The position numbers were made by a program, and so were the translations under genes. Shown here piece by piece: positions 7,866-37,217 of a DNA stretch of 60,065 nucleotides (positions within the stretch are counted from its first letter, which is position 1; each line of letters begins with the position of its first letter). This DNA is from Candidatus Andersenbacteria bacterium RIFCSPHIGHO2_02_FULL_46_16 (GTDB lineage Bacteria; Patescibacteriota; Andersenbacteria; UBA10190). Under the pieces are notes generated by a model. That model saw nothing but the letters and a program-made list of their open reading frames with translations. It was not told the DNA's origin and searched no databases. The stretch lies in NCBI GenBank assembly GCA_001817065.1, contig MHHQ01000032.1, forward strand, positions 1-60,065, given 5' to 3'.

Positions 7866-8361
7866 TTAATTGACGGATAATCATTTCATCCCAGGAGTTA
7901 ATATTCTCTCCGGTAAAATCAAACCACACTTTCATAAAATCGCTACGCTCTAGTGTCCGCAGTTTCCCTATTTCCGGATCTTGTAGATAGATATTGTCTT
8001 TATCTAATCCAACTACCACTGAATAGTGACCATCCGGCACTTCCGAATCGCCATAATCAGCCCGACCGCGGGTAAACCAGTCAACAATAACGGGCACTTT
8101 TTTATCAAGCCAGAGTTGGATATCTTCAAACGATGCTTCTTTCTGAATTTCTACTTTAAAACCATACCTTTCCGCTGCTTTTTTTATCGATTTATCATCC
8201 GTACCCAAGTCAGGATCTCGCCCACACTCTTTAGCCACCTCTGCCTCAGTTTTCTCCACGCCATAATACGCCAGCACCATCTTCAAACTGGCTGGACCGC
8301 AGTAGCCGCCATGCAACGTTTCCTGAAATGGTTGGACATTAAGTAAATTAATTTGATTCAT
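7834..8361 (-). CDS. papain-like (C39-like) cysteine peptidase domain protein
   Basis: [17 protein letters not shown] motif, later His (DGHYSVV). Confidence 0.6.
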
Positions 8362-8770
8362 ATTTTTGAAAACCTTGTTTTATTGTATCGCGCATTCTGT
8401 CCGAGACGGGCGCTAAGTCGGCTAGCTCTTCTAGCTTAATCCAACGAAAATCCTGATGTTCAAAACTTAAAACAACTTTATTGTCTGCTTTTAACTCGCA
8501 GATAAAGGCGGTCGCATGCCTGTTCCATCCCTTCTCATTAACAAACGAGTAGTCATAATATCGTTTTACGGGGCTAACTGCTAAACCCGTTTCTTCTTTA
8601 ACTTCTCGCACTACCGCATCCTCGGGCGTCTCTCCTGGCTCAACGCCTCCGCCTACCAATTCCCAATAGCACGGTAAGAAATCGTCATCGGCAGCGCGGT
8701 GAGCCACTAAGACTTTGTCATCCTTGACTATAAAAGCATCTGCGCTAGTTATAACATTATCTTCGACCAT
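8348..8770 (-). CDS. NUDIX hydrolase
   Basis: Nudix box [24 protein letters not shown]. Confidence 0.9.
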
Positions 8771-8824
8771 ATGCTCATAAAACTACATTGCTCCTACGTG
8801 TTTATTAGGGTGAACTGTTCCATA

Positions 8825-9436
8825 TCAATTAAATCGTTTCCATGTCCCCTCCGTGATAACTTCCGGTTTTCCATCAACAACCTTCACAGCCGTTTGATCA
8901 TCTATGGCGTACAGGGGGGTTGTGATACCCCTTGCCACCTCATTAACTAATTCACCTGCTCTCGGAAAATACTGTGAGTTCATGTGAGGTACAACTAAAA
9001 AATCTACGAACCCTAAACCCTCATTAGTAGCGTCATCAATGATCGGCTCCTCATAAAGGCGCTGCATCTCTTTTTCACGAAGATTAGGGGCAACAACCAT
9101 ACTGCCTGCGCTAACGCCAACATAAACACGCGTTGTTAGTAGCGCAGGAAGAATGGTATCTAAACCTGATTTCCTGATCTGATCTATAAGATAGGACGTA
9201 TTGCCACCGCCCACCATAATCACATCAGCTTTTTCTAAACGGGACTGCCATACATCCCGTGATACGGCTGCAATGTCTACAATGTCCACTTCTTTAAAAC
9301 CAAGTTCATTGCATTTTGATAAATCGTTAATCAGCCATGACTTGTCCCCTTCAACTTTCGTACTAATTTCATCATCCCCAAAAGGCGCTGGAATGCCTTG
9401 CCAGCAACCGCTACCAAGAAAAGTAAGCTTCATCAT
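8825..9436 (-). CDS. S51 peptidase E-like (class I glutamine amidotransferase fold) protein
   Basis: ADVIMVGGGNTSYL and GVSAGS motifs. Confidence 0.7.
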   Translation of the reverse strand: MMKLTFLGSGCWQGIPAPFGDDEISTKVEGDKSWLINDLSKCNELGFKEVDIVDIAAVSRDVWQSRLEKADVIMVGGGNTSYLIDQIRKSGLDTILPALLTTRVYVGVSAGSMVVAPNLREKEMQRLYEEPIIDDATNEGLGFVDFLVVPHMNSQYFPRAGELVNEVARGITTPLYAIDDQTAVKVVDGKPEVITEGTWKRFN

Positions 9437-25805: not shown

Positions 25806-26711
25806 TTATTTTCCTCTTATACGGTCAACTTCCATTTGAATCCACTCATCTCCGGCAGCTTCAACTTCTTCATCGCTAAAAGGAATATCTGTCCACTCAA
25901 CTTCTCGATCATCTCCCCTTGCACACTGATCGGCTATTTTCTTTTCGATTGCGTTTATAAAACGGATAGTATTCGAAATATTATTAAAAATGAGAACGCT
26001 CTCGTTATCATTTAGGATCGGATTATCATGAGCAAAACTTTGGTTATTGCGTACGCCATTAAATGCTTCAAGGACTGAAATAGATGACTTCAAAATTCTC
26101 TCTGTCATTTCCGACTCAATCAGATTGTTTTCTTTCAAAAATTTTACATATCCACCAAACAAGCTATGTAATGGGACTTTTTTGTCATAGGAAATGGAAT
26201 GCTTTTCACTAAGCTCTCTAATATGCTTAACAACGAACGTGTGTAAACGATCCAGTGCGCCCGCAGGCTCATTATTTTCGATGCTCTCTCTAATTGATTT
26301 TGCCAACAACGAAAATGTTTCATCATCTGAGTTAGGCATAATTACATCAATATTTTCTATAGGACTATCTTTTTTCAAGCGCTCTAAAATTTTAAGACAG
26401 GCATCATAATATTCAGCCTTTGGATTCGACTCTGGAACCAACCTATTTATTTTGTTTGTAGATGCCCAATAATTCAATAGTTGTTCAAGAAATTTTGCGA
26501 CCAAAAAGTTTGGCTCTTTATCCCAGAATGCCCGTAATCGGTTAGCCTTTGATCCACTCCCATAGTTATATTTCTCGTCGTAGATTTCTACTCCCGTATG
26601 TTCAAGAACAAATTGCTCAAAAGTTCGATTACTAAAATCGATAACATATCCACTATTCATCCCAAATAGCTTCTCAAATTTTAGCTTTTCAATGCTTGAC
26701 AGGTCAGACAT
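25806..26711 (-). CDS. abortive-infection-like protein (Abi_C-type C-terminal domain)
   Basis: NGVRNNQSFAHDN resembles the Abi_C RN..aHG signature; the N-terminus resembles AbiJ-related N-domains. Confidence 0.5.
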   Translation of the reverse strand: MSDLSSIEKLKFEKLFGMNSGYVIDFSNRTFEQFVLEHTGVEIYDEKYNYGSGSKANRLRAFWDKEPNFLVAKFLEQLLNYWASTNKINRLVPESNPKAEYYDACLKILERLKKDSPIENIDVIMPNSDDETFSLLAKSIRESIENNEPAGALDRLHTFVVKHIRELSEKHSISYDKKVPLHSLFGGYVKFLKENNLIESEMTERILKSSISVLEAFNGVRNNQSFAHDNPILNDNESVLIFNNISNTIRFINAIEKKIADQCARGDDREVEWTDIPFSDEEVEAAGDEWIQMEVDRIRGK

Positions 26712-26717
26712 GGCGAC

Positions 26718-27278
26718 TTAGTTAACAAACCCAGTGAGTCTCTTAACCCCTTCTCTTATCTCTGGCAGCAGAGGATTTTCCGGCCAAGCCGACTCAAGAG
26801 CTTTTACTAACTTTTGCTGCTGAGCTAACTTCTCTTCCTTCGGCGCGTTGAATTTTTCAAACACCACATCACCTTGTTCCTCCCCATCATGAACAAGCTC
26901 CAACAGATTGTGCAGCACATCAGCTGATTTAAGCAGCAAAGCATCATGATTCATATCTTTTATATGGCCAAGCGCAATACGCTTGCGCGTCTCCCACGGC
27001 AGACCTTTATCTTCTTCTGTCACTGCCTTAACCAAATCCGCAACCGGTTCACCAAATTGTTCTTGTACATCATCCAGCTCAACATCACTATCCTCCACAA
27101 CATCATGAAGAATACCGGCGACTATTACGTCTTCACTGGCACCAACTTGCGAAAGAATTAATGCAACTGTTAGCGGATGTGTAATATAGGGAATATCCTT
27201 ACCTTTGCGTGTCTGTCCATCATGAGCCGTTATGGCAAAACGAATAGCCTTTTGGATTTTTCCACTATAGGCAATCAT
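26718..27278 (-). CDS. HD-domain hydrolase (RelA/SpoT-type HD_4)
   Basis: FAITAHDGQTRKG...PYITHPLTVA...ILHDVVEDS. Confidence 0.8.
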   Translation of the reverse strand: MIAYSGKIQKAIRFAITAHDGQTRKGKDIPYITHPLTVALILSQVGASEDVIVAGILHDVVEDSDVELDDVQEQFGEPVADLVKAVTEEDKGLPWETRKRIALGHIKDMNHDALLLKSADVLHNLLELVHDGEEQGDVVFEKFNAPKEEKLAQQQKLVKALESAWPENPLLPEIREGVKRLTGFVN

Positions 27279-27283
27279 GTGTG

Positions 27284-29971
27284 TTATTTGGAAAACAACC
27301 TAACAACTTCATCAAAATTTTTGAGCCTGTCCTTTTGCCATTCCTCCTGCTTTATATACAAAGCTTTATAAACCATCCTGGTTTGTCTGTTATTCACGTC
27401 TTCACACCAATTTTGTAGTCGTTCAAATTTCAGTTTATCATCTTCCTCTTCACGCCCTTTTGTCTCAACTATATAAACCGTCCTATCGTCAGTTTTTACA
27501 AAGAAATCGGGGTAATAGGTGGCGATAAAGCCCTGTGAATTTTTATACTCGATCCGTAGCGCACTGGCCTCTTTATTCTGGAAATTTTTTGAGAAGGAAA
27601 TTACATCATCACAATTTTCAATAAAGTCGGAGAACGTCAGTTCATAATCGCTATCACCAACAATCTTATTAAACACTGACTTTTTAGGAATTAGATAAGA
27701 CTTATCATTCACCACAAACGGTCGTGCATCACTGATCTTGATATAGTTCTTTATTTGAGTATCACCCATGTCCTGAACCGTCAGGTCGTTTATTGCCTGC
27801 TTGAATGAGTCCTTAATGAGGTGAATATATTCAACTTCCGACAGATTTCTCAAAGTATTCAGATCCGACAACTCCACCGGCTCATCAAACATGTTATTCT
27901 GTACAAATTCCTTTACTTTGCCAAATAGAATGTCGTAGCAACCAAACAAGCGCAGTTCTCGCATAATTGCTTGCGCGAAAAAGCCGATGACACTTTGATA
28001 GTCAGGTTCAATATCTCCACTCAATATGGTTGTATGATGAGTTACTTCATCCACGACATCTTTAAACACAATCTCTCTTTTTTCCTCATCAGAAAACGAC
28101 TTTACTTTGACTTTGGCATTACCAAAAGTAGCAACATTCAGTTCGGCTAGATTTTTATACTCCCGTTGTATTCTGGGTGACATTACTGGTAGCTCAATAT
28201 CCAGCTTGGATATATCCTTCTTAGGATTATCTTTGTCCACTTCAATAACCATAGGCGCGATTGGCTTTGCGCCAACGCCCATTGCTTTCTTTTCCAAAAT
28301 CACACCTTCACCCTTTATTGATTCAACGAAATCCATAAATGCTGGCGTGCCGACCACGCTCACATATTCTTCAACAGTATCGTCTCCAAAAAACATTCTT
28401 CTTAAACCTCGGCCTAATGTTTGTTCTGGTAAGATTTTTGATTCAGCGGCGTATGGTCTTAAACCCACAATGGTCGTGACATTCTTCACATCCCAACCTT
28501 CTTTTAACATCATGACAGAAATAATTACTTTATATGGACTTTCCCAACTATCTATGTTGTTGGCTAACTTCCTCAATATATCCAACTCCTCCTTATTCTT
28601 ACCGCTAACAGTTTCAGAAATTTCACCACTCTTATTAGTATGAATGGTTAAAACGGCATCCTTTAAATCCGCAAAGCTGGTTTCAATGTATTGAGCCACT
28701 TCATCACAATTCTTGGTATCATCCGTCATGATGAAAAGAATTGATTTTTTGCCTATAGGCTTAAGCGTCTCATACGTTTTGCGCCACTCTTCGATACCCA
28801 GATTGATGTAATCTCGGTATTTTTCACTAAACAACGGGCTTTGATTTTCTTTGAGTTTTCCGCGACTGGCCGCATCTGGCACAACTGGATTTTTTACAAT
28901 TCTCTGATGAATGGCCTCTACTAATGGATAGTCAGAAATTGTTTGCACAAAGATTGAACCATCATTTTTCTTTGGCGTTGCCGTAACATCTAACTGTAAA
29001 GCTAAGCCCGATCCTTTTTGTTTTAACCTGTTATCAATATCCAGGATGGACTTAAACCACGCCATCTTCTCGTCATGGATGTGATGTGCCTCATCATTAA
29101 TAACAATCAGCTCATCAATATCTCTTACGATCATACCGAGATCAACAGTCGAATCATTAGTTTTTGTCACGGGCTCATGACCCAAAAAGTATGCGGACGT
29201 ATCTTCATCATCCAGCCTCGGCTCTCTGACATCGCCTTCAAATACTCTGTGTATATTCGTCAAAAATATATTGCCTGTGTCAGACACATTCCTCAAGTTA
29301 TCTTGTAGATGTAGCGTGACTTGAAAATCATCCTGCCAATTTTGACCTTGATATCCATTATCCGGCAAAACTGGATCACTAAAAAATATCTTTAAGCCTT
29401 CAAAATCATTCTTGATTCTTTCGAAGACAATTACATTCGGCGTTATCAAAAGGAAGTTCTTAGCCAACTGAGAGTCCTGCTCGTATTTCTTATGAAAATA
29501 TGCCCAAGTAATCACCAGACTCATAACCTTTGTCTTGCCGGCACCAGTTGCCATTTTTATAACAAAACGCAACCAATCTTCAATAAACATGCCGGCACTC
29601 AATGCGCCTGTGGAGTTGTAGCGTATGAGATCATATTTATCTTTTACCTTTGCTACTTCGTACAACCAGACGACTGTTTCTAATGCTTCCCTTTGCGCAA
29701 AGTAATATCTAAAATGCGACGCAACACCTTCGTGATCGTACAAAACATGCTCTTCTTTAAACCACCAGTTAAGAAGTGCTTTTGATGTCTCACTCGCACC
29801 TTCATACTGTTTACCTCGCCATTCTTTTACCTTCTTGCGAAGCTCTGCCACAAGCGGTGGTAACAATTTATCATAGCCCTTTTCACGTAAATCTTCAGCT
29901 GCCGGAAACCACCGGATGCTCGGATCTAGTATCGCGTATGGGTCTTTGGGGAAATCTTTGTGGAGAGCCAT
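27284..29971 (-). CDS. res: type III restriction enzyme, Res subunit
   Basis: ATGAGKT, NDEAHH, C-terminal PDF...VETKG nuclease motif. Confidence 0.85.
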   Translation of the reverse strand: MALHKDFPKDPYAILDPSIRWFPAAEDLREKGYDKLLPPLVAELRKKVKEWRGKQYEGASETSKALLNWWFKEEHVLYDHEGVASHFRYYFAQREALETVVWLYEVAKVKDKYDLIRYNSTGALSAGMFIEDWLRFVIKMATGAGKTKVMSLVITWAYFHKKYEQDSQLAKNFLLITPNVIVFERIKNDFEGLKIFFSDPVLPDNGYQGQNWQDDFQVTLHLQDNLRNVSDTGNIFLTNIHRVFEGDVREPRLDDEDTSAYFLGHEPVTKTNDSTVDLGMIVRDIDELIVINDEAHHIHDEKMAWFKSILDIDNRLKQKGSGLALQLDVTATPKKNDGSIFVQTISDYPLVEAIHQRIVKNPVVPDAASRGKLKENQSPLFSEKYRDYINLGIEEWRKTYETLKPIGKKSILFIMTDDTKNCDEVAQYIETSFADLKDAVLTIHTNKSGEISETVSGKNKEELDILRKLANNIDSWESPYKVIISVMMLKEGWDVKNVTTIVGLRPYAAESKILPEQTLGRGLRRMFFGDDTVEEYVSVVGTPAFMDFVESIKGEGVILEKKAMGVGAKPIAPMVIEVDKDNPKKDISKLDIELPVMSPRIQREYKNLAELNVATFGNAKVKVKSFSDEEKREIVFKDVVDEVTHHTTILSGDIEPDYQSVIGFFAQAIMRELRLFGCYDILFGKVKEFVQNNMFDEPVELSDLNTLRNLSEVEYIHLIKDSFKQAINDLTVQDMGDTQIKNYIKISDARPFVVNDKSYLIPKKSVFNKIVGDSDYELTFSDFIENCDDVISFSKNFQNKEASALRIEYKNSQGFIATYYPDFFVKTDDRTVYIVETKGREEEDDKLKFERLQNWCEDVNNRQTRMVYKALYIKQEEWQKDRLKNFDEVVRLFSK

Positions 29972-29973
29972 GA

Positions 29974-30861
29974 TTATGATTTAGATATAGTAAAATCTCC
30001 AATTAAAACCTCGCCACATTCATTAAAAATCCCAACTCTTTTACCAAACATTGGTGGGTTTGTGATCTCTCCTAAAAAGTCACCATCCTTGAACATCTTC
30101 GCCTTTTCACTAGTAAACTCAACACGCACCCTGTGCCATTGATTATCTATTGTTCTCGTACCAAGAATTTTATTAAACCTCCAGTTTACACCCGGCCCCC
30201 CGTCCTTAATAAGGAATGCATCGGAATCTGCTGTTCTACCTTCAAATCGAGCCATATGCCAATTATCTTGTTTATCATCACAGAAAAAGACAATGTTCAA
30301 AACTGAATTCGGGGAAAGATATATATCACATTCAACAGTCCCCCTATCAATCTCCAAATCTTTAGCTATGAGGAAGCTATTAGTGGCCTGGGCGGGGTTT
30401 GCCATTGTGAGCTGAAGTCGTGGATGCCCCATATCAGAAAACAAAGAAGGTTGTCCAGTCTTTATATCCCACCTAGAAGCATCAATTGTATTTTTAGAGC
30501 TTGTAAAATTATCAGAAAATATACTAGAAGGTGAAGATAGACGATAACCACGTTTATCGCTACTAAAAAAGCTCATAAAAACAATTAAAGAGACTATTAG
30601 CCACAACCATTTCACGGGGCTTTGGGCATAAAGGAATGCAATGGAAATAACAAAAATAGTGAACCTCGTGTAGGGATGCATTATTTTGGATAATAACCAC
30701 TGTAAAACATTAGCCAATTTTGGATTTTGTCGATACAACCAATATTTAAATGGCTTAATTACCCAGTACACAAAAATGGTTATAATTATTGTAGCTATTA
30801 AAGTGCCCAGTGCGTTAGCTAGAGCGCTACTCCAAAACGCCTGATCTGTAAAATCGATCAT
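29974..30861 (-). CDS. membrane-anchored protein with C-terminal concanavalin-A/LamG-like (DUF1080-like) beta-sandwich
   Basis: 3-4 N-terminal TM helices. The C-terminal pattern ...WHRVRVEFTSEKAKMFKDGDFLGEI is typical of this fold (weak). Confidence 0.45.
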   Translation of the reverse strand: MIDFTDQAFWSSALANALGTLIATIIITIFVYWVIKPFKYWLYRQNPKLANVLQWLLSKIMHPYTRFTIFVISIAFLYAQSPVKWLWLIVSLIVFMSFFSSDKRGYRLSSPSSIFSDNFTSSKNTIDASRWDIKTGQPSLFSDMGHPRLQLTMANPAQATNSFLIAKDLEIDRGTVECDIYLSPNSVLNIVFFCDDKQDNWHMARFEGRTADSDAFLIKDGGPGVNWRFNKILGTRTIDNQWHRVRVEFTSEKAKMFKDGDFLGEITNPPMFGKRVGIFNECGEVLIGDFTISKS

Positions 30862-32981
30862 ATATTTACCTCGATTACTTTTGTCGTATCGTTTCCAAAA
30901 ATATCCACTACCTTTACAGCAACTTTATAAGTTCCTCTAGTCACTTCCTTAGATACGGAAGTGAGTTCAAGATTTCTATTCTTTTTTGTACGAAAACTCT
31001 GCCATTCATTATCAAATATATAGTCGCCAGTCCAAACTTCTTTTTCCTGCCCATTTTCTAGGATTGTTATTATTTCTTTCCTATCCGCAAAATTGAAATC
31101 CACCGCCCAATAATCAATCCAATCGCTCCACTTTTTAGTTAAAACTTCTTTTTCGACAAGATCGGTTTTCTTGTCTTTTGATATTTTCACCACTTGTCCA
31201 TTTTCTACTATCACTTTTACTCCCCCCGGCCGCAAAGTTTCGACTATTTCGCCCGCGTCGTCTTGATTATAGAAAACAGAAAAGTCAATCAGCTTGATTG
31301 AAAGCTCCTTTTTATTCACCCGCCCTTTCACAATCGGCTTTGCTTCAATAAACGCCACATCATAAAACTTCACTTGTCCTTTTTCTACCGCTTTCCTGTC
31401 GAATACTTCTCTTGGAATTATTCTAAAAGCAATATCGACGCCCTGATCCTTATACTGCGAAAAATCAAGCCCCATCTCGTAGTCAAAGCCCAAAACATCA
31501 ATCTTAGTGATTCCCTTCTCTTTGCACTCTGTCACAATATCTTGCACCAGTTTTAAAGAAACGGGAGTATTGATAGGTCCTACCGCGACAAGGCGATCTC
31601 TTTTCTTACCGATAACATTTACAAAAGATCCTACCGGCTCCGCTTTATACGCAGAAAGTATGAGTTTTACAAATTCTTTCTCTTTCCTTTCGGCTTGTTT
31701 TGATTTTTCTTCCGCTCGCAAATTGTCATTTGTTGCAAGGAAACTTTCTCTTTCGTATCTTCCGACATTCAAAATTTCAAATGCTCGAAAGTTCTTGCCA
31801 GCCTTTTTGAGCTCTCTCTGCACGCCGATTAGTCGTTTACGTGAAGTATGAATCCCAAATTTCCCCAAATCAGAGCCAATCCACTTTCTTCCTAATTTTT
31901 CTGCTACTCCCAACGTTGTGCCAGAACCACAGAAAAAGTCAGCGATGAGGTCGCCTTCGTTTGAAGAAGCTTCAATGATTCTCTCAAGTAGTTCTGTGGG
32001 TTTTTGAGTCGGATAATCGATACGCTCATCGGCGCTTGCATTGATATGTTGAATTGGCCATACATCACCAACTCGTTTACCACCCTCGTTCAGATATACT
32101 TTATATGCCTCTTTTCCGGCACGTTTTTGCCATCGAAACCATTTACCGCTTTCGTCCTGTTTATAATGAGAATCTTTTGTTCCGGCAGTCTCACTATATG
32201 CCTCACGCTGTTCGTTGAAAATCCATTTGCTGGATTTCGTGAACCAGTAAATATTGTCGTGAAGCGTTTGATAGCTATTACTGTTGGCAGTATAGCGTCT
32301 GTAGTACCAAATAATTTCATTTCTAAAATTATCTTTTCCAAATATCTCATCTAGGCACATTCTCATAAAACTATTCACTCTCCAATCGCAATGTACATAA
32401 ATACTTCCATCTTCCGCGAGCAAATCGTGCATGAGTTTTAACCGTTCATAAATCATCGCAATAAAACTATCCGCGCCTTTGCCCCAAGTGTCACGATAGG
32501 CGATTTCTTCTATAACTGACGGCTTTTTGGTAAAGCTTTCTTCGTCCTCGCCATCGCCGATTTTTATATCCATCGAAAAATCCGCCCCGACATCAAACGG
32601 CGGGTCAATGTAAATTAATTTCAATCCACCTTGTGCTTCTATTTCTTTGCGGAGCGGTCCATTCTTGAGGGAAGAAAGAATCAGCTTATTGTCTCCCCAG
32701 ATAAGTTTATTCGTCCATCCAGAAATCTGCCTTCCCGACATATCAAAAAGCGAACCCTGCGGATTCCCAAATTTACCATCACTTCTCGGCTCGTCTATTT
32801 GTTCAATAACCTGAAAAGGCAAGACGACATTCGTTACCTCATTTGTTTTTCCGTTCCAAACCAGCTCGACTTCTCGGTCATCATCAAAAAGCAAAAAGCG
32901 ATACTTTTCCGGAAGCGGCTTTCCGGCTTCCAAAAATTTTGCAATATCTCTTTTCTCGTTATCAGTAAGCTTCATAGTCAC
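30858..32981 (-). CDS. mod: type III R-M Mod DNA methyltransferase (beta-class N6A/N4C)
   Basis: IYIDPPF (motif IV) before DFFCGSGTT (motif I). Confidence 0.85.
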   Translation of the reverse strand: MTMKLTDNEKRDIAKFLEAGKPLPEKYRFLLFDDDREVELVWNGKTNEVTNVVLPFQVIEQIDEPRSDGKFGNPQGSLFDMSGRQISGWTNKLIWGDNKLILSSLKNGPLRKEIEAQGGLKLIYIDPPFDVGADFSMDIKIGDGEDEESFTKKPSVIEEIAYRDTWGKGADSFIAMIYERLKLMHDLLAEDGSIYVHCDWRVNSFMRMCLDEIFGKDNFRNEIIWYYRRYTANSNSYQTLHDNIYWFTKSSKWIFNEQREAYSETAGTKDSHYKQDESGKWFRWQKRAGKEAYKVYLNEGGKRVGDVWPIQHINASADERIDYPTQKPTELLERIIEASSNEGDLIADFFCGSGTTLGVAEKLGRKWIGSDLGKFGIHTSRKRLIGVQRELKKAGKNFRAFEILNVGRYERESFLATNDNLRAEEKSKQAERKEKEFVKLILSAYKAEPVGSFVNVIGKKRDRLVAVGPINTPVSLKLVQDIVTECKEKGITKIDVLGFDYEMGLDFSQYKDQGVDIAFRIIPREVFDRKAVEKGQVKFYDVAFIEAKPIVKGRVNKKELSIKLIDFSVFYNQDDAGEIVETLRPGGVKVIVENGQVVKISKDKKTDLVEKEVLTKKWSDWIDYWAVDFNFADRKEIITILENGQEKEVWTGDYIFDNEWQSFRTKKNRNLELTSVSKEVTRGTYKVAVKVVDIFGNDTTKVIEVNI

Positions 32982-32986
32982 AATTG

Positions 32987-33349
32987 CTATAATACATTTA
33001 GGTACTTAACAAAGAGATAAAGCAATACAAAATTACCCGCGTGGTACATGATACGATGCTGCCACTCTATGCGATTATCCGTTTTTTTACGTTTATCCTT
33101 ATCTTCGATTACTTCACTCTTAATCTCCTTGTGTATGCTGCGTAAATCTTTCTCAAAGTACCTCCATATCATTCCAGCCGTAGCATATAAGAAGAGTGCC
33201 CATATCTCATGGAAGTGTTGCCCTGTAACTAAGGAAATAAATACCAATACACTGGCAACAAAAATAATTAAAAAATATGGTGGCTTATCTTCGAGTAGCT
33301 TTCCGACATGATCCATAAATGCTTCAAACGACCCCATAATCAACTCCAA
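32987..33349 (-). CDS. small membrane protein (3 TM)
   Basis: Hydrophobic spans; overlaps its upstream neighbour. Confidence 0.45.
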   Translation of the reverse strand: MELIMGSFEAFMDHVGKLLEDKPPYFLIIFVASVLVFISLVTGQHFHEIWALFLYATAGMIWRYFEKDLRSIHKEIKSEVIEDKDKRKKTDNRIEWQHRIMYHAGNFVLLYLFVKYLNVL

Positions 33350-33672
33350 TACATCTTTACATCTGAAATCTGCTGTCTAATCTCATCACGGACAGCCTCG
33401 GCTTGTTTTGATAAAATCCACCGCTTGTCCCGCCCTCCCTGTACTTTGTCGAGATAGCCGTTGCGGTAAAGTGCGCCTAGGACAGCACCGGCTGCCTTGC
33501 CTTCAACGAAGTATTCAATTTTCTTCACCACGTCAGAGGTATTAAAGGAATCTTTTCTTAACTGCAAAATCGCGTACAAGGCTCTTTGTTGAGTTTCCGG
33601 AAGTTCATGAACCTTCTTTATTTCTTTGGTCATAAAATCATCTTCGCGCACCACAACTACCTTGTCAACCAC
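33340..33672 (-). CDS. small protein, possibly wHTH
   Basis: Size and helix pattern only. Confidence 0.35.
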   Translation of the reverse strand: MVDKVVVVREDDFMTKEIKKVHELPETQQRALYAILQLRKDSFNTSDVVKKIEYFVEGKAAGAVLGALYRNGYLDKVQGGRDKRWILSKQAEAVRDEIRQQISDVKMYWS

Positions 33673-33679
33673 TATTTAT

Positions 33680-34231
33680 TCACACCCCATGGGCCAAAAC
33701 CTTCAAGCCATTAATTCCTTCATAAAAAACCTTTGCCCATAAGTAGCGGTCAAAATTCCGCAGTGAACACCCTACTTCTATTGCCCTCTCTTTACATATT
33801 TGATTGTATGCCAAATAGGCTAATAAATTTTCTGACGGATTGCTTAGTACCACCTGACCAAGTGACTTGAGCGAAACTATGGCACGGTAATCAACTACTG
33901 TAAAATCATCCGGATAACATACAGCCAGAATGGCTGACGCCATCGGTAAACCAATAAATGAAATCTCAATTAGGAGTTTCACCTTATCCTCCAACGTTGG
34001 TTCTTTGGTTAAAGCAGCCGTTAAATCATGTACAGTGACGCCTTTAAGTAATAAACCTTGCTTAACCTTGGTTTTTGCCCGATTTGATTTCCAAATGACG
34101 ATTGCAAAGAATTCCTCCGGTTCAAGATAACCTCGGGATCGAAAATTCTCTGTGACCGTATTGAAAAGATAATCCTCAATAAAATAGTATTTGATAAAAT
34201 CTGCCTCTTTCCATTTATTAATCTCACTCAT
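33680..34231 (-). CDS. hypothetical protein, possible OGG/HhH-glycosylase-like fold (start taken at MSEINKW)
   Basis: FFAIVIWKSNR... and GLPMASAILAVCYPDDFTVVDYR recall OGG-fold proteins; weak. Confidence 0.35.
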   Translation of the reverse strand: MSEINKWKEADFIKYYFIEDYLFNTVTENFRSRGYLEPEEFFAIVIWKSNRAKTKVKQGLLLKGVTVHDLTAALTKEPTLEDKVKLLIEISFIGLPMASAILAVCYPDDFTVVDYRAIVSLKSLGQVVLSNPSENLLAYLAYNQICKERAIEVGCSLRNFDRYLWAKVFYEGINGLKVLAHGV

Positions 34232-35339
34232 CTTGTTCAGCCTCCAGAACATTCTTAATCCATAAACAAACCTCAAAGAATTTGCTCCGAGCTTCTTTGT
34301 CCGCCATGGTATTGAGGGACAGCTTAAACGCGCCGTTACCATCAACTTTATTCACATCAACCGTCGCATCCTTAATCAATTTCAAGCGTTCCAATATCTC
34401 CGCTCGCTTCCCTCGCTTGTCAAAAGGCGACGGGCAGTAATCACCCTGATGCCATGCATTCCATGAAACCAACGCATCTCCTGTAACTGAAAACGGATAG
34501 AATTTCTTTCCATCCTTGGAATCAAAACCAAGAACGAAAGAACCGCTTTGGTTAGTCATCCAGTAAATCCCGATATCATTGCTCTCTGCCCAATCAATAA
34601 TCTGTCGCGCGGCAGTCACTGCTTCTTCTCCGGATTCTGCTAAGCGCAGTTTAAATGAATCCCAGTCCCATTGCCTGCCAAGAGATTTCTTGGTGGGTAT
34701 GTCTTTTTTAACCTCGGCTCCGAATATACGAGGGATGATAATTTCGTAGGTGTCGTGCTTGTAGTACTCGAGCTCAACGGCATAAATATCAAACTGACTG
34801 TTTTGATTAACGTAGATGATCAAATCCTTAAGCCGGTCATCCAACTTATCCATCAATACGACGAAGTGGAAGATACCATCATTTAGATTAGAACGAACTG
34901 TATTTATTAAGGATTCAGTTTCCTCGTTCGGTAGTTGAAAAAAATCCTGAATTTTTTCCTGCGCTCTTGAGCCAAACACTTTTTGGGTGTGCTCATCGAG
35001 AATAGCAATGAATTCGTTAAAATTATTCGAGTGTTTCCAGAGAGCTGCCCCATAATCAAGCGCTTGGGCGATAACAGTACGCTTATCCGAATTTTTATAA
35101 AGTTTCGTCTCGATAATGTAAAGCTCACCATCAGCATCAATGCCAATCGCATCAATAGGACCGCTGGTAGTAGGAAATTCACGGGCTAAAGTTAGGAGAC
35201 GGATGTCTTCCTTAATATCATAGAGCGGGATGCTGTCCGGGTTTTCGTAAATATATTGTTGCAGACGATCTTCCTGATCAAAGGAAGATTTATCTACCTT
35301 GACTGCTTTCTGACCGTTTTGTGAGATGACAATTGCCAT
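34224..35339 (-). CDS. NucS/DUF91-like PD-(D/E)xK nuclease domain protein with a C-terminal extension
   Basis: EDRLQQYIYENPDSI...GPIDAIGIDADGELYIIETK. Confidence 0.6.
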   Translation of the reverse strand: MAIVISQNGQKAVKVDKSSFDQEDRLQQYIYENPDSIPLYDIKEDIRLLTLAREFPTTSGPIDAIGIDADGELYIIETKLYKNSDKRTVIAQALDYGAALWKHSNNFNEFIAILDEHTQKVFGSRAQEKIQDFFQLPNEETESLINTVRSNLNDGIFHFVVLMDKLDDRLKDLIIYVNQNSQFDIYAVELEYYKHDTYEIIIPRIFGAEVKKDIPTKKSLGRQWDWDSFKLRLAESGEEAVTAARQIIDWAESNDIGIYWMTNQSGSFVLGFDSKDGKKFYPFSVTGDALVSWNAWHQGDYCPSPFDKRGKRAEILERLKLIKDATVDVNKVDGNGAFKLSLNTMADKEARSKFFEVCLWIKNVLEAEQDE

Positions 35340-35372
35340 TGTGCTTATATAGTTTTCAGGTGTCAGGCACTT

Positions 35373-36023
35373 TTATATCTTTACCTTTGCGTCTCCACTA
35401 AAAACCAAGTGTGTCATATCCCAGTATAGGGTACTCAAAAGGGCTGTATCGGCTTTTGAAGTTTCGCTTGTAATTAACTTCCTGATATTTTTCCGAAATG
35501 CCTGGCGGCTATTATTACAAGCTGCTGAGACTGTATTGCCTTTAAGTAAAGAAATTGGAACTTGGGTAGCTGGTTCAAGAAATTTTTTGGCTACTTCATC
35601 ATGATGAGGCTTAGTCTGTTTGTCTCGATCCGTGTAGAAAATAAAATCGGTATTGTAGCCAACAAAAGCCTTAGCTCCCTGGTGCACACTTTCTGGACCA
35701 AGCTCGTTTGCAGCTTGGCAAGATAGGGCATACGTTACAGTATCTTGCAAAATCTTGGCGTTATCATCACTCCGAACAATAGCTACATTGTCCTGTCCAC
35801 AAACTTGATTACTACTGCCATGACCATTGAGAAAGATAAGATCAGGTTTAACTTTGCGCACAATACTTTCAAAATATTTCTTACAGGCACGTTTATTTTT
35901 TAAATCAGTGACTGAATGCCCTTTTTGTTGGACTTCATTGCTGAATTTTCCTGCATAGTAAGAAAGGTAGCGGGTAGTTAAGTCATGATTGGGACGAGTA
36001 ACTACAATCCGCTTAGTCGTCAT
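35373..36023 (-). CDS. hypothetical protein; possible clan CD (caspase/gingipain-like) His-Cys fold
   Basis: LIFLNGHGS followed 34 residues later by YALSCQAA, each after a hydrophobic strand. Confidence 0.3.
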   Translation of the reverse strand: MTTKRIVVTRPNHDLTTRYLSYYAGKFSNEVQQKGHSVTDLKNKRACKKYFESIVRKVKPDLIFLNGHGSSNQVCGQDNVAIVRSDDNAKILQDTVTYALSCQAANELGPESVHQGAKAFVGYNTDFIFYTDRDKQTKPHHDEVAKKFLEPATQVPISLLKGNTVSAACNNSRQAFRKNIRKLITSETSKADTALLSTLYWDMTHLVFSGDAKVKI

Positions 36024-36237
36024 AAAGAGCGCCTTCTTTTAATGCCCGCAAAAAACTCATTTCAACCTCGATAATCTTCTGTCCGACGCGATCGCCTTCT
36101 TCCACATGCTGGATAAGCTCATCTCTTTTATAACTACCGTCAGCTCCAATAGAAATCTCGCGATCAGCGGGTATAGCGCGTAACCGCGCCACAACCAGCT
36201 CTTTTATATCGTCTTGGGTTTCTTCTGGCACGATCAA
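36013..36237 (-). CDS. hypothetical small protein (74 aa)
   Basis: ORF overlapping its downstream neighbour. Confidence 0.4.
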   Translation of the reverse strand: MIVPEETQDDIKELVVARLRAIPADREISIGADGSYKRDELIQHVEEGDRVGQKIIEVEMSFLRALKEGALYDD

Positions 36238-36242
36238 TAAGT

Positions 36243-36422
36243 TTAAATAATTTCCAGGTTAGCTAGCTTTTCTAGAATTTGTCGGCCGCTTTCTGTGTCT
36301 TCAACAATCTCAAGATTGGCTACTCTCCACGTAATAGGCTCACCGTCCAAGACAACCACGACTTGGTCTCGTACATTAAGTGGCAAGTTGGCGTAGACTT
36401 TAAAAAATCTTTCCTTATCCAT
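36243..36422 (-). CDS. hypothetical small protein (59 aa, below the ORF-track cutoff): MDKERFFKVYANLPLNVRDQVVVVLDGEPITWRVANLEIVEDTESGRQILEKLANLEII
   Basis: Translated by hand; its stop lies 5 nt before the next start. Confidence 0.35.
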   Translation of the reverse strand: MDKERFFKVYANLPLNVRDQVVVVLDGEPITWRVANLEIVEDTESGRQILEKLANLEII

Positions 36423-36503
36423 GTAATAGGTAACTATTTTTAGTTAAAGAATATTTGACCATTTGCTCGCGGGGTCGGACTCGAACCGACAACCTAGTGG
36501 TTA

Positions 36504-37050
36504 CATGTAACCCATTATTTTCATAATGGCATGGACTATCTCATTCACCACACCTCTTTTGAGACATGGCGACCGGGCGCTTATGTAGGATTATTGTTGG
36601 GACTCACCTACTAGTCTCTACACCTTCCGAAAAACTAATACCCTTTTCGGCTTGGCTCGGGATTACCAGTTAAGGCTTCCCCGAATTCACCCAGTTATTC
36701 GATCCGCCTCTCGACGGAAAGCTGCGTTATACCAGCATGCAACTCTCTGTGACAATTAGCGCAAACAATTATGCACTTATCAACCTCTGCCTTGACTCTC
36801 ACCCACGAACGAGTTAATCCACTCAATCCCAATCCAAATTTCTTACTCGATTCGTCAATGTGGTGAAAGTCCAAACCAGCTGCACATTTATTATAGCCAC
36901 ACAGCATACATGCTCCGCCTTTGTATTCAACAGCCATAGCCTTAATCTTTCGTCGCCTCTTAGCCACAGCTTGTTTTATATACTCAGCACGGTCAGCATA
37001 AGTTCTTGTCTCTGGCATACACTTCATAGTATACCCGATCAACTTAATAC
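36504..37050 (-). ncRNA. group I intron, IC3-like (Azoarcus/cyanobacterial tRNA-intron type)
   Basis: Strings AAUUCGGGGAAGCCUUAA, CCCGAGCCAAGCC and GAAGGUGUAGAGACUAG, with P7 GACUA/UAGUC, a GAAA-capped hairpin and a terminal G. The 5' exon ends in U. Confidence 0.75.
36695..37027 (-). CDS. intron-encoded HNH endonuclease (ATG at 37027; alternative TTG at 37042)
   Basis: GGACMLCGY...FHHID...VCANCHRELH. Confidence 0.8.
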   Translation of the reverse strand: MKCMPETRTYADRAEYIKQAVAKRRRKIKAMAVEYKGGACMLCGYNKCAAGLDFHHIDESSKKFGLGLSGLTRSWVRVKAEVDKCIIVCANCHRELHAGITQLSVERRIE

Positions 37051-37217
37051 ACAGCCACTTGCTCTGCCATTGAGCTACCCGCGAATAAGGCCTGTTTCCA
37101 GGCCTGTCTCTGAATTATTGCTAACCCAGATATTTTTTAAAACTGTAAAGAACACACCTAAATAAATAGGTGTGTCAATTGTGGCTAATAAACTGGAAAA
37201 ATTCAAGCTCTAGGCCA

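Follow-up and report, generated by a model that had tools for sequence, protein, structure and literature searches.

Seven open reading frames (ORFs) lie tightly packed on the minus strand at 32987-36422 of contig MHHQ01000032.1 from Candidatus Andersenbacteria bacterium RIFCSPHIGHO2_02_FULL_46_16, within the 60,065-nucleotide (nt) stretch that was analysed and is called the window here, and their arrangement raises the question whether they form one system or several. They are called g1 to g7 in the order of their strand. The original prediction had taken them for a single module of a caspase-fold protease, a NucS-like nuclease, an OGG-like protein and small membrane and regulatory proteins. 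Its limits agreed exactly with the analysis, and the seven genes and all the quoted motifs were present, while the single module found no support, since its parts occur independently of one another across 36 genomes and 80 metagenome loci. The region is probably a mosaic of separately travelling units that heads a 10.6-kb defence array, and its first three genes, the triad g1-g2-g3, would in this interpretation act as a proteolytic switch.

The triad consists of g1 (36243-36422, minus strand), which encodes an acidic small protein of 59 amino acids (aa), g2 (36013-36237, minus strand), which encodes another acidic small protein of 74 aa, and g3 (35373-36023, minus strand), which encodes a single-domain clan-CD (caspase/CHAT-like) cysteine protease of 216 aa with predicted catalytic His68 and Cys102. 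The stop of g2 and the start of g3 overlap by 11 nt.

These three genes are a strict unit of fixed order and coupled spacing. Profile hidden Markov models (HMMs) of g1, g2 and g3 were run over 1.28 Mb of fetched DNA, and all three occurred together in 53 of 55 g3 loci, or in 53 of the 53 informative ones, the remaining two being a contig whose end cuts the cassette and a divergent viral copy. Neither g1 nor g2 was ever seen without g3 in this DNA. A separate scan for g3 covered 185,579 genomes, one per species, and was pattern-limited, being built on a 10-sequence alignment; it gave 36 loci with g3 relatives, and by tblastn g1 and g2 stood immediately 5' of g3 in essentially all of them. The g1-g2 gap was -26 to +5 nt and the g2-g3 gap -20 to +5 nt in 19 loci, and no fourth gene was conserved beside the triad. 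Outside the lineage of the window, the profile searches of about 1.3 Mb never showed g1 and g2 together with the nuclease or with the OGG-like gene.

The borders of this unit could be read from L008, a Joint Genome Institute (JGI) metagenome contig of a related but distinct organism, whose DNA was compared with the window feature by feature. L008 carries g1-g2-g3-g4-X-g6, followed by a restriction-modification (RM) system. Upstream of the tRNA-Asn gene that precedes the array the two sequences were 86.6% identical, and the core of the group I intron within this gene was 90% identical; the stretch that begins with the tRNA 3' exon and includes the g3-g4 spacer had 1 mismatch in ~1170 nt (99.9%). 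Identity was 80-86% in g4 and 93.7% in g6, an unrelated 197-aa gene (Y) took the place of g5 between them, and g7 and the two restriction genes Mod and Res could not be aligned, the restriction system of L008 being a different one. The comparison delimits the triad block at ~36503-35340. This pattern, with its breakpoints at unit borders, is what separate, exchangeable units would produce, and the recombination boundaries of the units are established by it.

That all seven genes make up one new defence system of protease, nuclease and glycosylase-like protein is very improbable. Such a system would fit their common strand, the gaps of -11 to +33 nt between them and their place in a defence island, and L008 keeps the order g1-g2-g3-g4-X-g6 in front of an RM system. 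However, the same tight packing, which the original prediction did not mention, takes in five further downstream genes, and L008 is a close relative which differs exactly at the unit boundaries. By tblastn, g4 to g7 were not found in the other 36 triad genome loci. Among 80 metagenome loci that were sampled from more than 515 of the g4 family, g5 occurred in none and the triad in one, which was the L008 contig. Conserved homologues of g1 to g6 exist elsewhere; among the fetched loci, g7 recurred only in contigs of the same strain. Co-occurrence of the seven families across unrelated genomes, as a single system would show, was thus not found, and the synteny in other genomes by which the single module was to be judged largely failed, only L008 keeping a partial order.

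The protease g3 carried the strings LIFLNGHGS and YALSCQAA, with 34 residues from His68 to Cys102, and the earlier suspicion of a clan-CD His/Cys dyad was borne out by structure prediction. The AlphaFold2 (AF2) model had a mean predicted local distance difference test (pLDDT) of 96.7 and a predicted TM-score (pTM) of 0.93, in which H68 followed the strand 62-66 and C102 the strand 96-100, the His-then-Cys arrangement of clan CD. In an alignment of 41 homologues N66, G67, H68, G69, C102 and D142 were invariant, and the candidate S1 residues R10, D14 and D142 were conserved.

The best Foldseek match of the g3 model in PDB was SAVED-CHAT (8tl0, E 2e-7, query TM-score (TMq) 0.60), and further matches were caspase-11, -4 and -1, separase (5u1s), gingipain RgpB (4ief, TMq 0.60), C11 proteases and the Craspase TPR-CHAT protein (7y84). 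Clan-CD proteases accounted for 15 of the 16 PDB matches at E<=1e-3, the exception being an aminotransferase (1vjo, TMq 0.34). Among the viral models of BFVD, the matches at E<=1e-3 were an uncharacterised protein from Myoviridae and a C11 protease related to clostripain. Neither Pfam CHAT (PF12770) nor Peptidase_C14 matched g3 at E<=0.1, and one homologue (P0087) bears the automatic UniRef name 'CHAT domain'. Judged by its predicted fold, g3 is a clan-CD protease of unassigned family.

With the CHAT proteases (SAVED-CHAT 8tl0; TPR-CHAT/Csx29 7y84) and separase (5u1s), g3 has in common the caspase/hemoglobinase fold, the His after one strand (NGHG) and the Cys after the next (LSC), and, as in CHAT-type proteases, its gene adjoins the genes of dedicated small protein partners. 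Unlike them, it is a bare catalytic domain of 216 aa that lacks a SAVED, TPR or other sensor domain, and no CRISPR, CBASS or gasdermin partner was located near it. Its partners g1 and g2 fall in no known family, and the g3 family is essentially confined to bacteria of the candidate phyla radiation (CPR, Patescibacteria) and DPANN archaea, which also sets it apart from CHAT-type systems.

In a profile search of 1.84 billion representatives, 406 sequences matched the g3 family at E<=1e-30, a number that rose to 1392 at E<=1e-10 and to 2593 at E<=1e-3. The 150 closest relatives were single-domain proteins of 164-246 aa, nearly all of ~202-224 aa, with a few shorter ones that are probably truncated. 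Some g3 genes were split (loci L030, L042, L044 and L046). The parts in L030, L042 and L046 resemble frameshifts or pseudogenes; in L044 (5759-8462) an insertion is suggested by the ~2 kb that lie between the N-terminal and the C-terminal part.

The two partners were conserved in their own way, with F6, P14, R18, W32 and E38 invariant in g1 and R18, G31 and G52 in g2. In the window g1 and g2 are acidic, with isoelectric points (pI) of 4.58 and 4.5, and g3 is basic, with a pI of 9.4; the family medians were 5.8, 5.6 and 9.1, respectively. No transmembrane segment was predicted in any of the three proteins, and Pfam, NCBIfam, PHROG and PADLOC gave nothing significant for them. A member-by-member Pfam scan of the g1 and g2 families returned scattered matches at E>0.01, and profile searches of PDB with g1 and g2 had no meaningful match. 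In the archaeal locus L007, g1 is extended at its N-terminus by a part that looked AbrB/SpoVT-like by eye; this lead was dropped after Pfam gave no match.

The 36 species genomes with g3 relatives belonged to Patescibacteria and to DPANN archaea, the latter represented by Woesearchaeota, Iainarchaeum, Micrarchaeota, Nanoarchaeia, Altiarchaeota and Aenigmatarchaeota. A CPR clade stood apart from a DPANN clade in the g3 tree, with a few archaeal sequences inside the bacterial clade. One Roizmanbacteria metagenome-assembled genome (MAG) had two copies of the triad (L014 and L016). Among 141 ORFs neighbouring the triad were MNT/HEPN (4), Fic (3), AAA_14-DUF4143 (3), HicA (2) and ResIII (2) proteins.

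A divergent relative of g3 with a C-terminal membrane anchor was encoded at 33383-35075 of the archaeal virus BK063666.1 (L139; Caudoviricetes, stated host Methanofastidiosa), scoring 60.5 bits against the g3 family HMM, and the overlapping gene before it encodes a 66-aa protein that is weakly g2-like (13.9 bits). This was the one distant g3 relative among GenBank phage records, and neither the g3 nor the g5 family had a relative in scans of IMG/VR. In the same virus, a queuine tRNA-ribosyltransferase (DpdA-like) gene lies ~1 kb upstream of the g3-like protease; genes of the DpdA type are characteristic of phages whose DNA carries 7-deazaguanine modifications.

The following mechanism could be proposed for the triad, in which every biochemical activity, like any defence role of g1 to g7, is one that we infer. 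The triad would be self-contained and translationally coupled, so that its three proteins would be made together and would form a complex. The cytosolic g3 would bind and probably cleave one small partner, and the other partner would be its inhibitor or adaptor. The triad would be mobile and of conflict, addiction or abortive-infection type rather than housekeeping, which is suggested by its patchy, horizontally transferred distribution.

The next unit begins with g4 (34224-35339, minus strand), whose product of 371 aa is a NucS-like PD-(D/E)xK nuclease (D63, E77, K79) with a variable C-terminal domain. The nuclease core announced for this gene, GPIDAIGIDADGELYIIETK, was present, D63, E77 and K79 were invariant among 38 homologues, and a PD-(D/E)xK fold was found by structure prediction beside the caspase-like fold of g3, the absence of which would have spoken against the original prediction. 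The AF2 model (pLDDT 82, pTM 0.55) had NucS (2vld) and EndoMS (5gke) as its top Foldseek matches (probability 1.0 and 0.9, E ~5e-3), followed by Exo5, AdnAB and Cas4.

With NucS/EndoMS, g4 shares the NucS_C-like signature D...ExK in a PD-(D/E)xK core. The domain order differs: the nuclease core of g4 is N-terminal (residues ~50-100) and is followed by helical and C-terminal domains, whereas the nuclease domain of NucS is C-terminal. HMM scores were far below the cut-offs, with 16.5 bits for Pfam NucS_C (cut-off 24) and 23 bits for NCBIfam NucS (cut-off 216), and Pfam found no NucS_N match and hence no N-terminal NucS_N half-barrel. Thus g4 is a predicted PD-(D/E)xK nuclease and not a NucS orthologue.

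Against PADLOC, residues 8-216 of g4 matched PDC-S11 (PDLC04916) at 3.9e-18, and four more PDC-S11 models and PDC-S18 (7.9e-9) were also matched. The PDC-S11 profile was covered at positions 10-193 of 358 only, so the likeness concerns the N-terminal ~210 residues, and the C-terminal 150 residues of g4 are a different, exchangeable domain. PDC-S11 is itself only a candidate system, and the literature mention of it that was found is correlative. The earlier statement that the genes match no named defence system holds only in part: the triad had no PADLOC model, but g4 matches this candidate and the array runs into a Type III RM system.

Many of the >515 metagenome loci of the g4 family matched only residues 1-225 to 1-294; the core (residues 1 to ~225-294) is highly conserved, and the C-terminal domain is swapped between subfamilies. 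Genes like methyltransferases (MTases) were within ~5 kb in 26 of 79 g4 loci, and in 17 of these the MTase was upstream on the opposite strand. With its conserved core and exchangeable C-terminal domain, often beside MTases or RM operons, g4 would be a candidate-defence DNA nuclease. A recurrent three-gene set adjoined g4-family genes in L047 (1971-4981), L104 (454-4350) and L120 (810-4015). It comprised an N6/N4 methyltransferase, a 141-aa protein and a ~470-500-aa protein, together with an integrase in L047, and may be a mobile element carrying or abutting the g4-family nuclease.

The gene g5 (33680-34231, minus strand) overlaps g4 by 8 nt and encodes an Ogg2-like helix-hairpin-helix (HhH) protein of 183 aa that starts from MSEINKW; the mechanical ORF begins earlier, and the start was placed here because homologues fix it. 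Its strings WKSNR and GLPMASAILAV had been taken as OGG-like, which agrees with the family: a profile of 37 sequences matched archaeal Ogg2 structures in PDB at 5e-4 to 8e-3 (9o02 5e-4, 3fhg 2.6e-3, 3knt and 3fhf ~7e-3). The alignment spans the HhH and the Asp region (GIGxPMASAIL...vvDyR vs GLGMKEASHFL...IIDRH). In common with Ogg2 (3knt, 3fhg, 9o00), an HhH is followed by a conserved Asp ~20 residues on, which is D114 in g5 and is kept in at least 90% of sequences.

What g5 lacks is the Lys with which Ogg2 (GMKEAS) forms its Schiff base; this residue is replaced by Pro, Ala or Ser in 37 of 37 family sequences and by Pro in g5 itself. The N-terminal motif IWKSNRAKTK, with invariant K48 and K53, had no counterpart identified, and g5 scored under every curated threshold. 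The NCBIfam N-glycosylase/DNA lyase model NF002305 gave E 0.005 and 16.3 bits, below its cut-off of 183, and Pfam PF21790 'OGG' gave a sub-threshold 24-25 bits (cut-off 27) on two distant g5 homologues only. If it is active, g5 should be a monofunctional glycosylase, and otherwise it may be only a base-flipping reader.

Where homologues of g5 occurred without g4, their neighbours were HNH, Mrr-type or DUF499/DUF1156 genes, or else housekeeping genes. Brig1, of the UDG family, is reportedly a defence glycosylase (PMC11078745). The HhH-superfamily 'Dag' glycosylases act in phage defence against modified-guanine phages, and are reported beside restriction-type genes, as g5 often is (bioRxiv 10.1101/2025.10.29.685425). 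The Dag proteins are thus a precedent for a part in defence of an HhH protein that resembles a glycosylase but lacks the Lys, as g5 does, and by this analogy the role of g5 likely resembles that of defence-associated HhH glycosylases which attack modified phage DNA.

The last two genes of the region are small. The product of g6 (33340-33672, minus strand) is a basic protein of 110 aa and probably a regulator with a winged helix (MarR/SarA-like), which is found with g4 in some loci; the matches of g6 were all weak (TIGR01889 Sar family 0.0082, PHROG transcriptional regulator 0.0067, SarA homologue 1p4x 0.7). In L008 (95% identical) and L047 (49%) a homologue of g6 follows g4, as do weaker homologues in L062, L090 and L127. 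The product of g7 (32987-33349, minus strand) is an orphan small membrane protein of 116-120 aa. It had been described as a tiny protein with three transmembrane segments, of which one strongly hydrophobic segment (residues 26-42, Kyte-Doolittle 2.92) could be confirmed, and the other two are weak (1.15 and 1.48).

How the triad and the nuclease genes function allows several readings besides the one preferred here. A tentative reading of the triad is an unrecognised protease-based conflict system (immune or addiction) of CPR, DPANN and, divergently, at least one archaeal virus, in which one acidic partner would restrain the CHAT-like protease and the other would be processed to trigger a response. 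Equally tentative is a physiological module of ultra-small symbionts, in which two small proteins linked to episymbiosis would, for example, be matured or undergo regulated proteolysis. This would suit a family of uniform lengths and architecture which hardly occurs outside CPR and DPANN and in which bacterial and archaeal members form clades of their own, a separation that points to long residence. However, the triad is patchy, with the 36 hits of the pattern-limited scan among 185,579 species genomes, it occurs twice in one genome assembly, and a near-identical block recently moved between diverged lineages. Split g3 genes, toxin-antitoxin and defence genes among the neighbours and the copy in one virus also disagree with a physiological module. 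Several findings nevertheless weigh against the switch of conflict type. No PADLOC model matched the triad, and it stood amid housekeeping genes in several loci, such as FtsX and peptidase M23 (L003) or sugar-nucleotide genes (L005), with UvrA/B and aminoacyl-tRNA synthetases nearby in others; therefore a physiological role is possible. The separation into units and the roles of the other genes also have points against them: the tight packing and the 8-nt g4/g5 overlap allow co-transcription and functional cooperation at the window locus, g5 may be catalytically dead, and the fold matches of g4 are weak by TM (TMq 0.22), values which are low because the model is multi-domain.

The nuclease genes permit a second, weaker reading, that g4, a swappable middle 'sensor' gene (g5 or Y) and g6 may be a functional cassette, alone or as an RM accessory, with an exchangeable slot for a sensor of DNA lesions or modifications on RM operons; it could, for example, cut phage DNA wherever the middle protein has marked or processed a site. 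The order shared by the window, L008 and L047 is g4, a gene of ~180-200 aa, g6 and an RM-type operon, with the middle gene exchanged, and across these three g4 is 77-81% identical and g6 49-95%. The g4/g5 overlap and the MTase-like genes around g4 are in line with it, and in L120 and L088 homologues of Type III Mod-Res follow g4 immediately (Mod 58% and Res 67% identical between L120 and the window). A cassette of this kind is rather unlikely, however, since g5 was missing from all the sampled g4 loci, g6-like genes were in ~5 of 80 g4 loci and in 2 of the 49 with enough downstream sequence for a check within 2.5 kb, and g5 homologues exist apart from g4. Its three loci include two fairly close relatives, and Y is without detectable fold or family.

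The gene Y (~200 aa) fills the g5 slot between g4 and g6 at 2801-3394 of L008 and 7115-7723 of L047, and the two copies are 48% identical. Sequence and profile searches with Y against Pfam, NCBIfam and PDB found no match. It has an LLGLNVS motif, which is faintly MUG/UDG-like by eye only.

In the preferred reading, the mosaic of separately travelling units, the region is the first 3.4 kb of a whole array of 12 co-directional genes (10.6 kb), which continues beyond g7 on the same strand and with equally tight packing. The Type III Mod gene (30858-32981, minus strand; N6_N4_Mtase 2.1e-48, PADLOC MTase_III 2.5e-120) is followed by the gene of a 295-aa membrane protein (29974-30861, minus strand) and by the Type III Res gene (27284-29971, minus strand; ResIII 3.5e-16, REase_III 2.8e-18), whose product has a ResIII part and a C-terminal endonuclease domain. 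An HD protein gene (26718-27278, minus strand; HD_4 1.2e-20) and an Abi_C protein gene (25806-26711, minus strand; Abi_C 1.9e-11) close the array after Res.

An EcoP15I-like Type III Mod/Res system thus stands directly downstream of g7, outside 32987-36422, and differs from EcoP15I-like systems by the 295-aa membrane protein between mod and res. The gene at this position varies: in place of the membrane protein of the window (29974-30861), a Patescibacteria MAG with Mod and Res 83% identical (L001) has a 543-aa AAA_15/AAA_21 ATPase (725-2356), and L120 has a 205-aa protein in the mod-res intergenic position (8330-8947). A scan for promoters and terminators gave counts at shuffle level and was uninformative.

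The array lies in a defence island, and its host, known from an aquifer genome, is apparently an ultra-small CPR/Patescibacteria bacterium. The window DNA is identical to public aquifer contigs, including LCKH01000007.1 of GCA_001001305.1, and the nearest homologues of g3, g4, g5, Mod and Res were nearly all from Patescibacteria/CPR.

The array starts right after a split tRNA-Asn(GUU) gene (36465-37084, minus strand), which was identified with Rfam and ARAGORN. A group I intron of 547 nt (36504-37050, minus strand) in the anticodon loop separates the 5' exon (37051-37084, minus strand) from the 3' exon (36465-36503, minus strand), and Rfam RF00028 matched it with 57.3 bits (E 6e-12) at 36512-36780. 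ARAGORN did not detect the tRNA in the unspliced window and read the spliced construct as tRNA-Asn(gtt), the junction used being the sole one at which the exon ends in U and the intron in G. Within the intron, an ORF (36695-37042, minus strand) encodes an HNH homing endonuclease of 115 aa (PHROG HNH endonuclease families, 1.6e-28 and 2.6e-27), and the homologous intron of L008 is without this 279-nt HNH part. Group I introns in tRNAs of CPR bacteria have been reported earlier (PMC8172020).

The GC content rises from ~41% to 46-50% near 37 kb. The low-GC block of the window (~10000-37000, GC 38-43%) is flanked by sequence of 46-51%, and its right edge, at ~37 kb, is the tRNA-Asn gene; this coincidence suggests an integration hotspot or an island boundary. 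Insertion beside tRNA genes is not general for the triad, with an adjacent tRNA gene in just 2 of 38 other loci.

For the reading of such loci, the comparison means that tight operon-like packing can mislead into calls of one system, and that recombination boundaries define the true units. What makes the triad new is that no model in Pfam, NCBIfam, PHROG or PADLOC covers it, that neither partner protein had been described and that it is unusually distributed; in the literature on CHAT, caspases, CPR and DPANN, nothing relevant was found. The family is uniform and uncharacterised, with ~400 clusters (50% identity) at E<=1e-30 and ~2,600 at E<=1e-3, and g3 is among the smallest caspase-fold proteases, always with two partner proteins.

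Much of microbial diversity belongs to the CPR bacteria and the DPANN archaea, and how they handle viruses and regulate proteins has been little studied experimentally. The triad offers a compact and tractable entry point to these organisms, with three small soluble proteins and clear catalytic mutants. If it is indeed a proteolytic immune or addiction switch, CHAT/caspase-based immunity would reach in it a minimal, sensor-less form.

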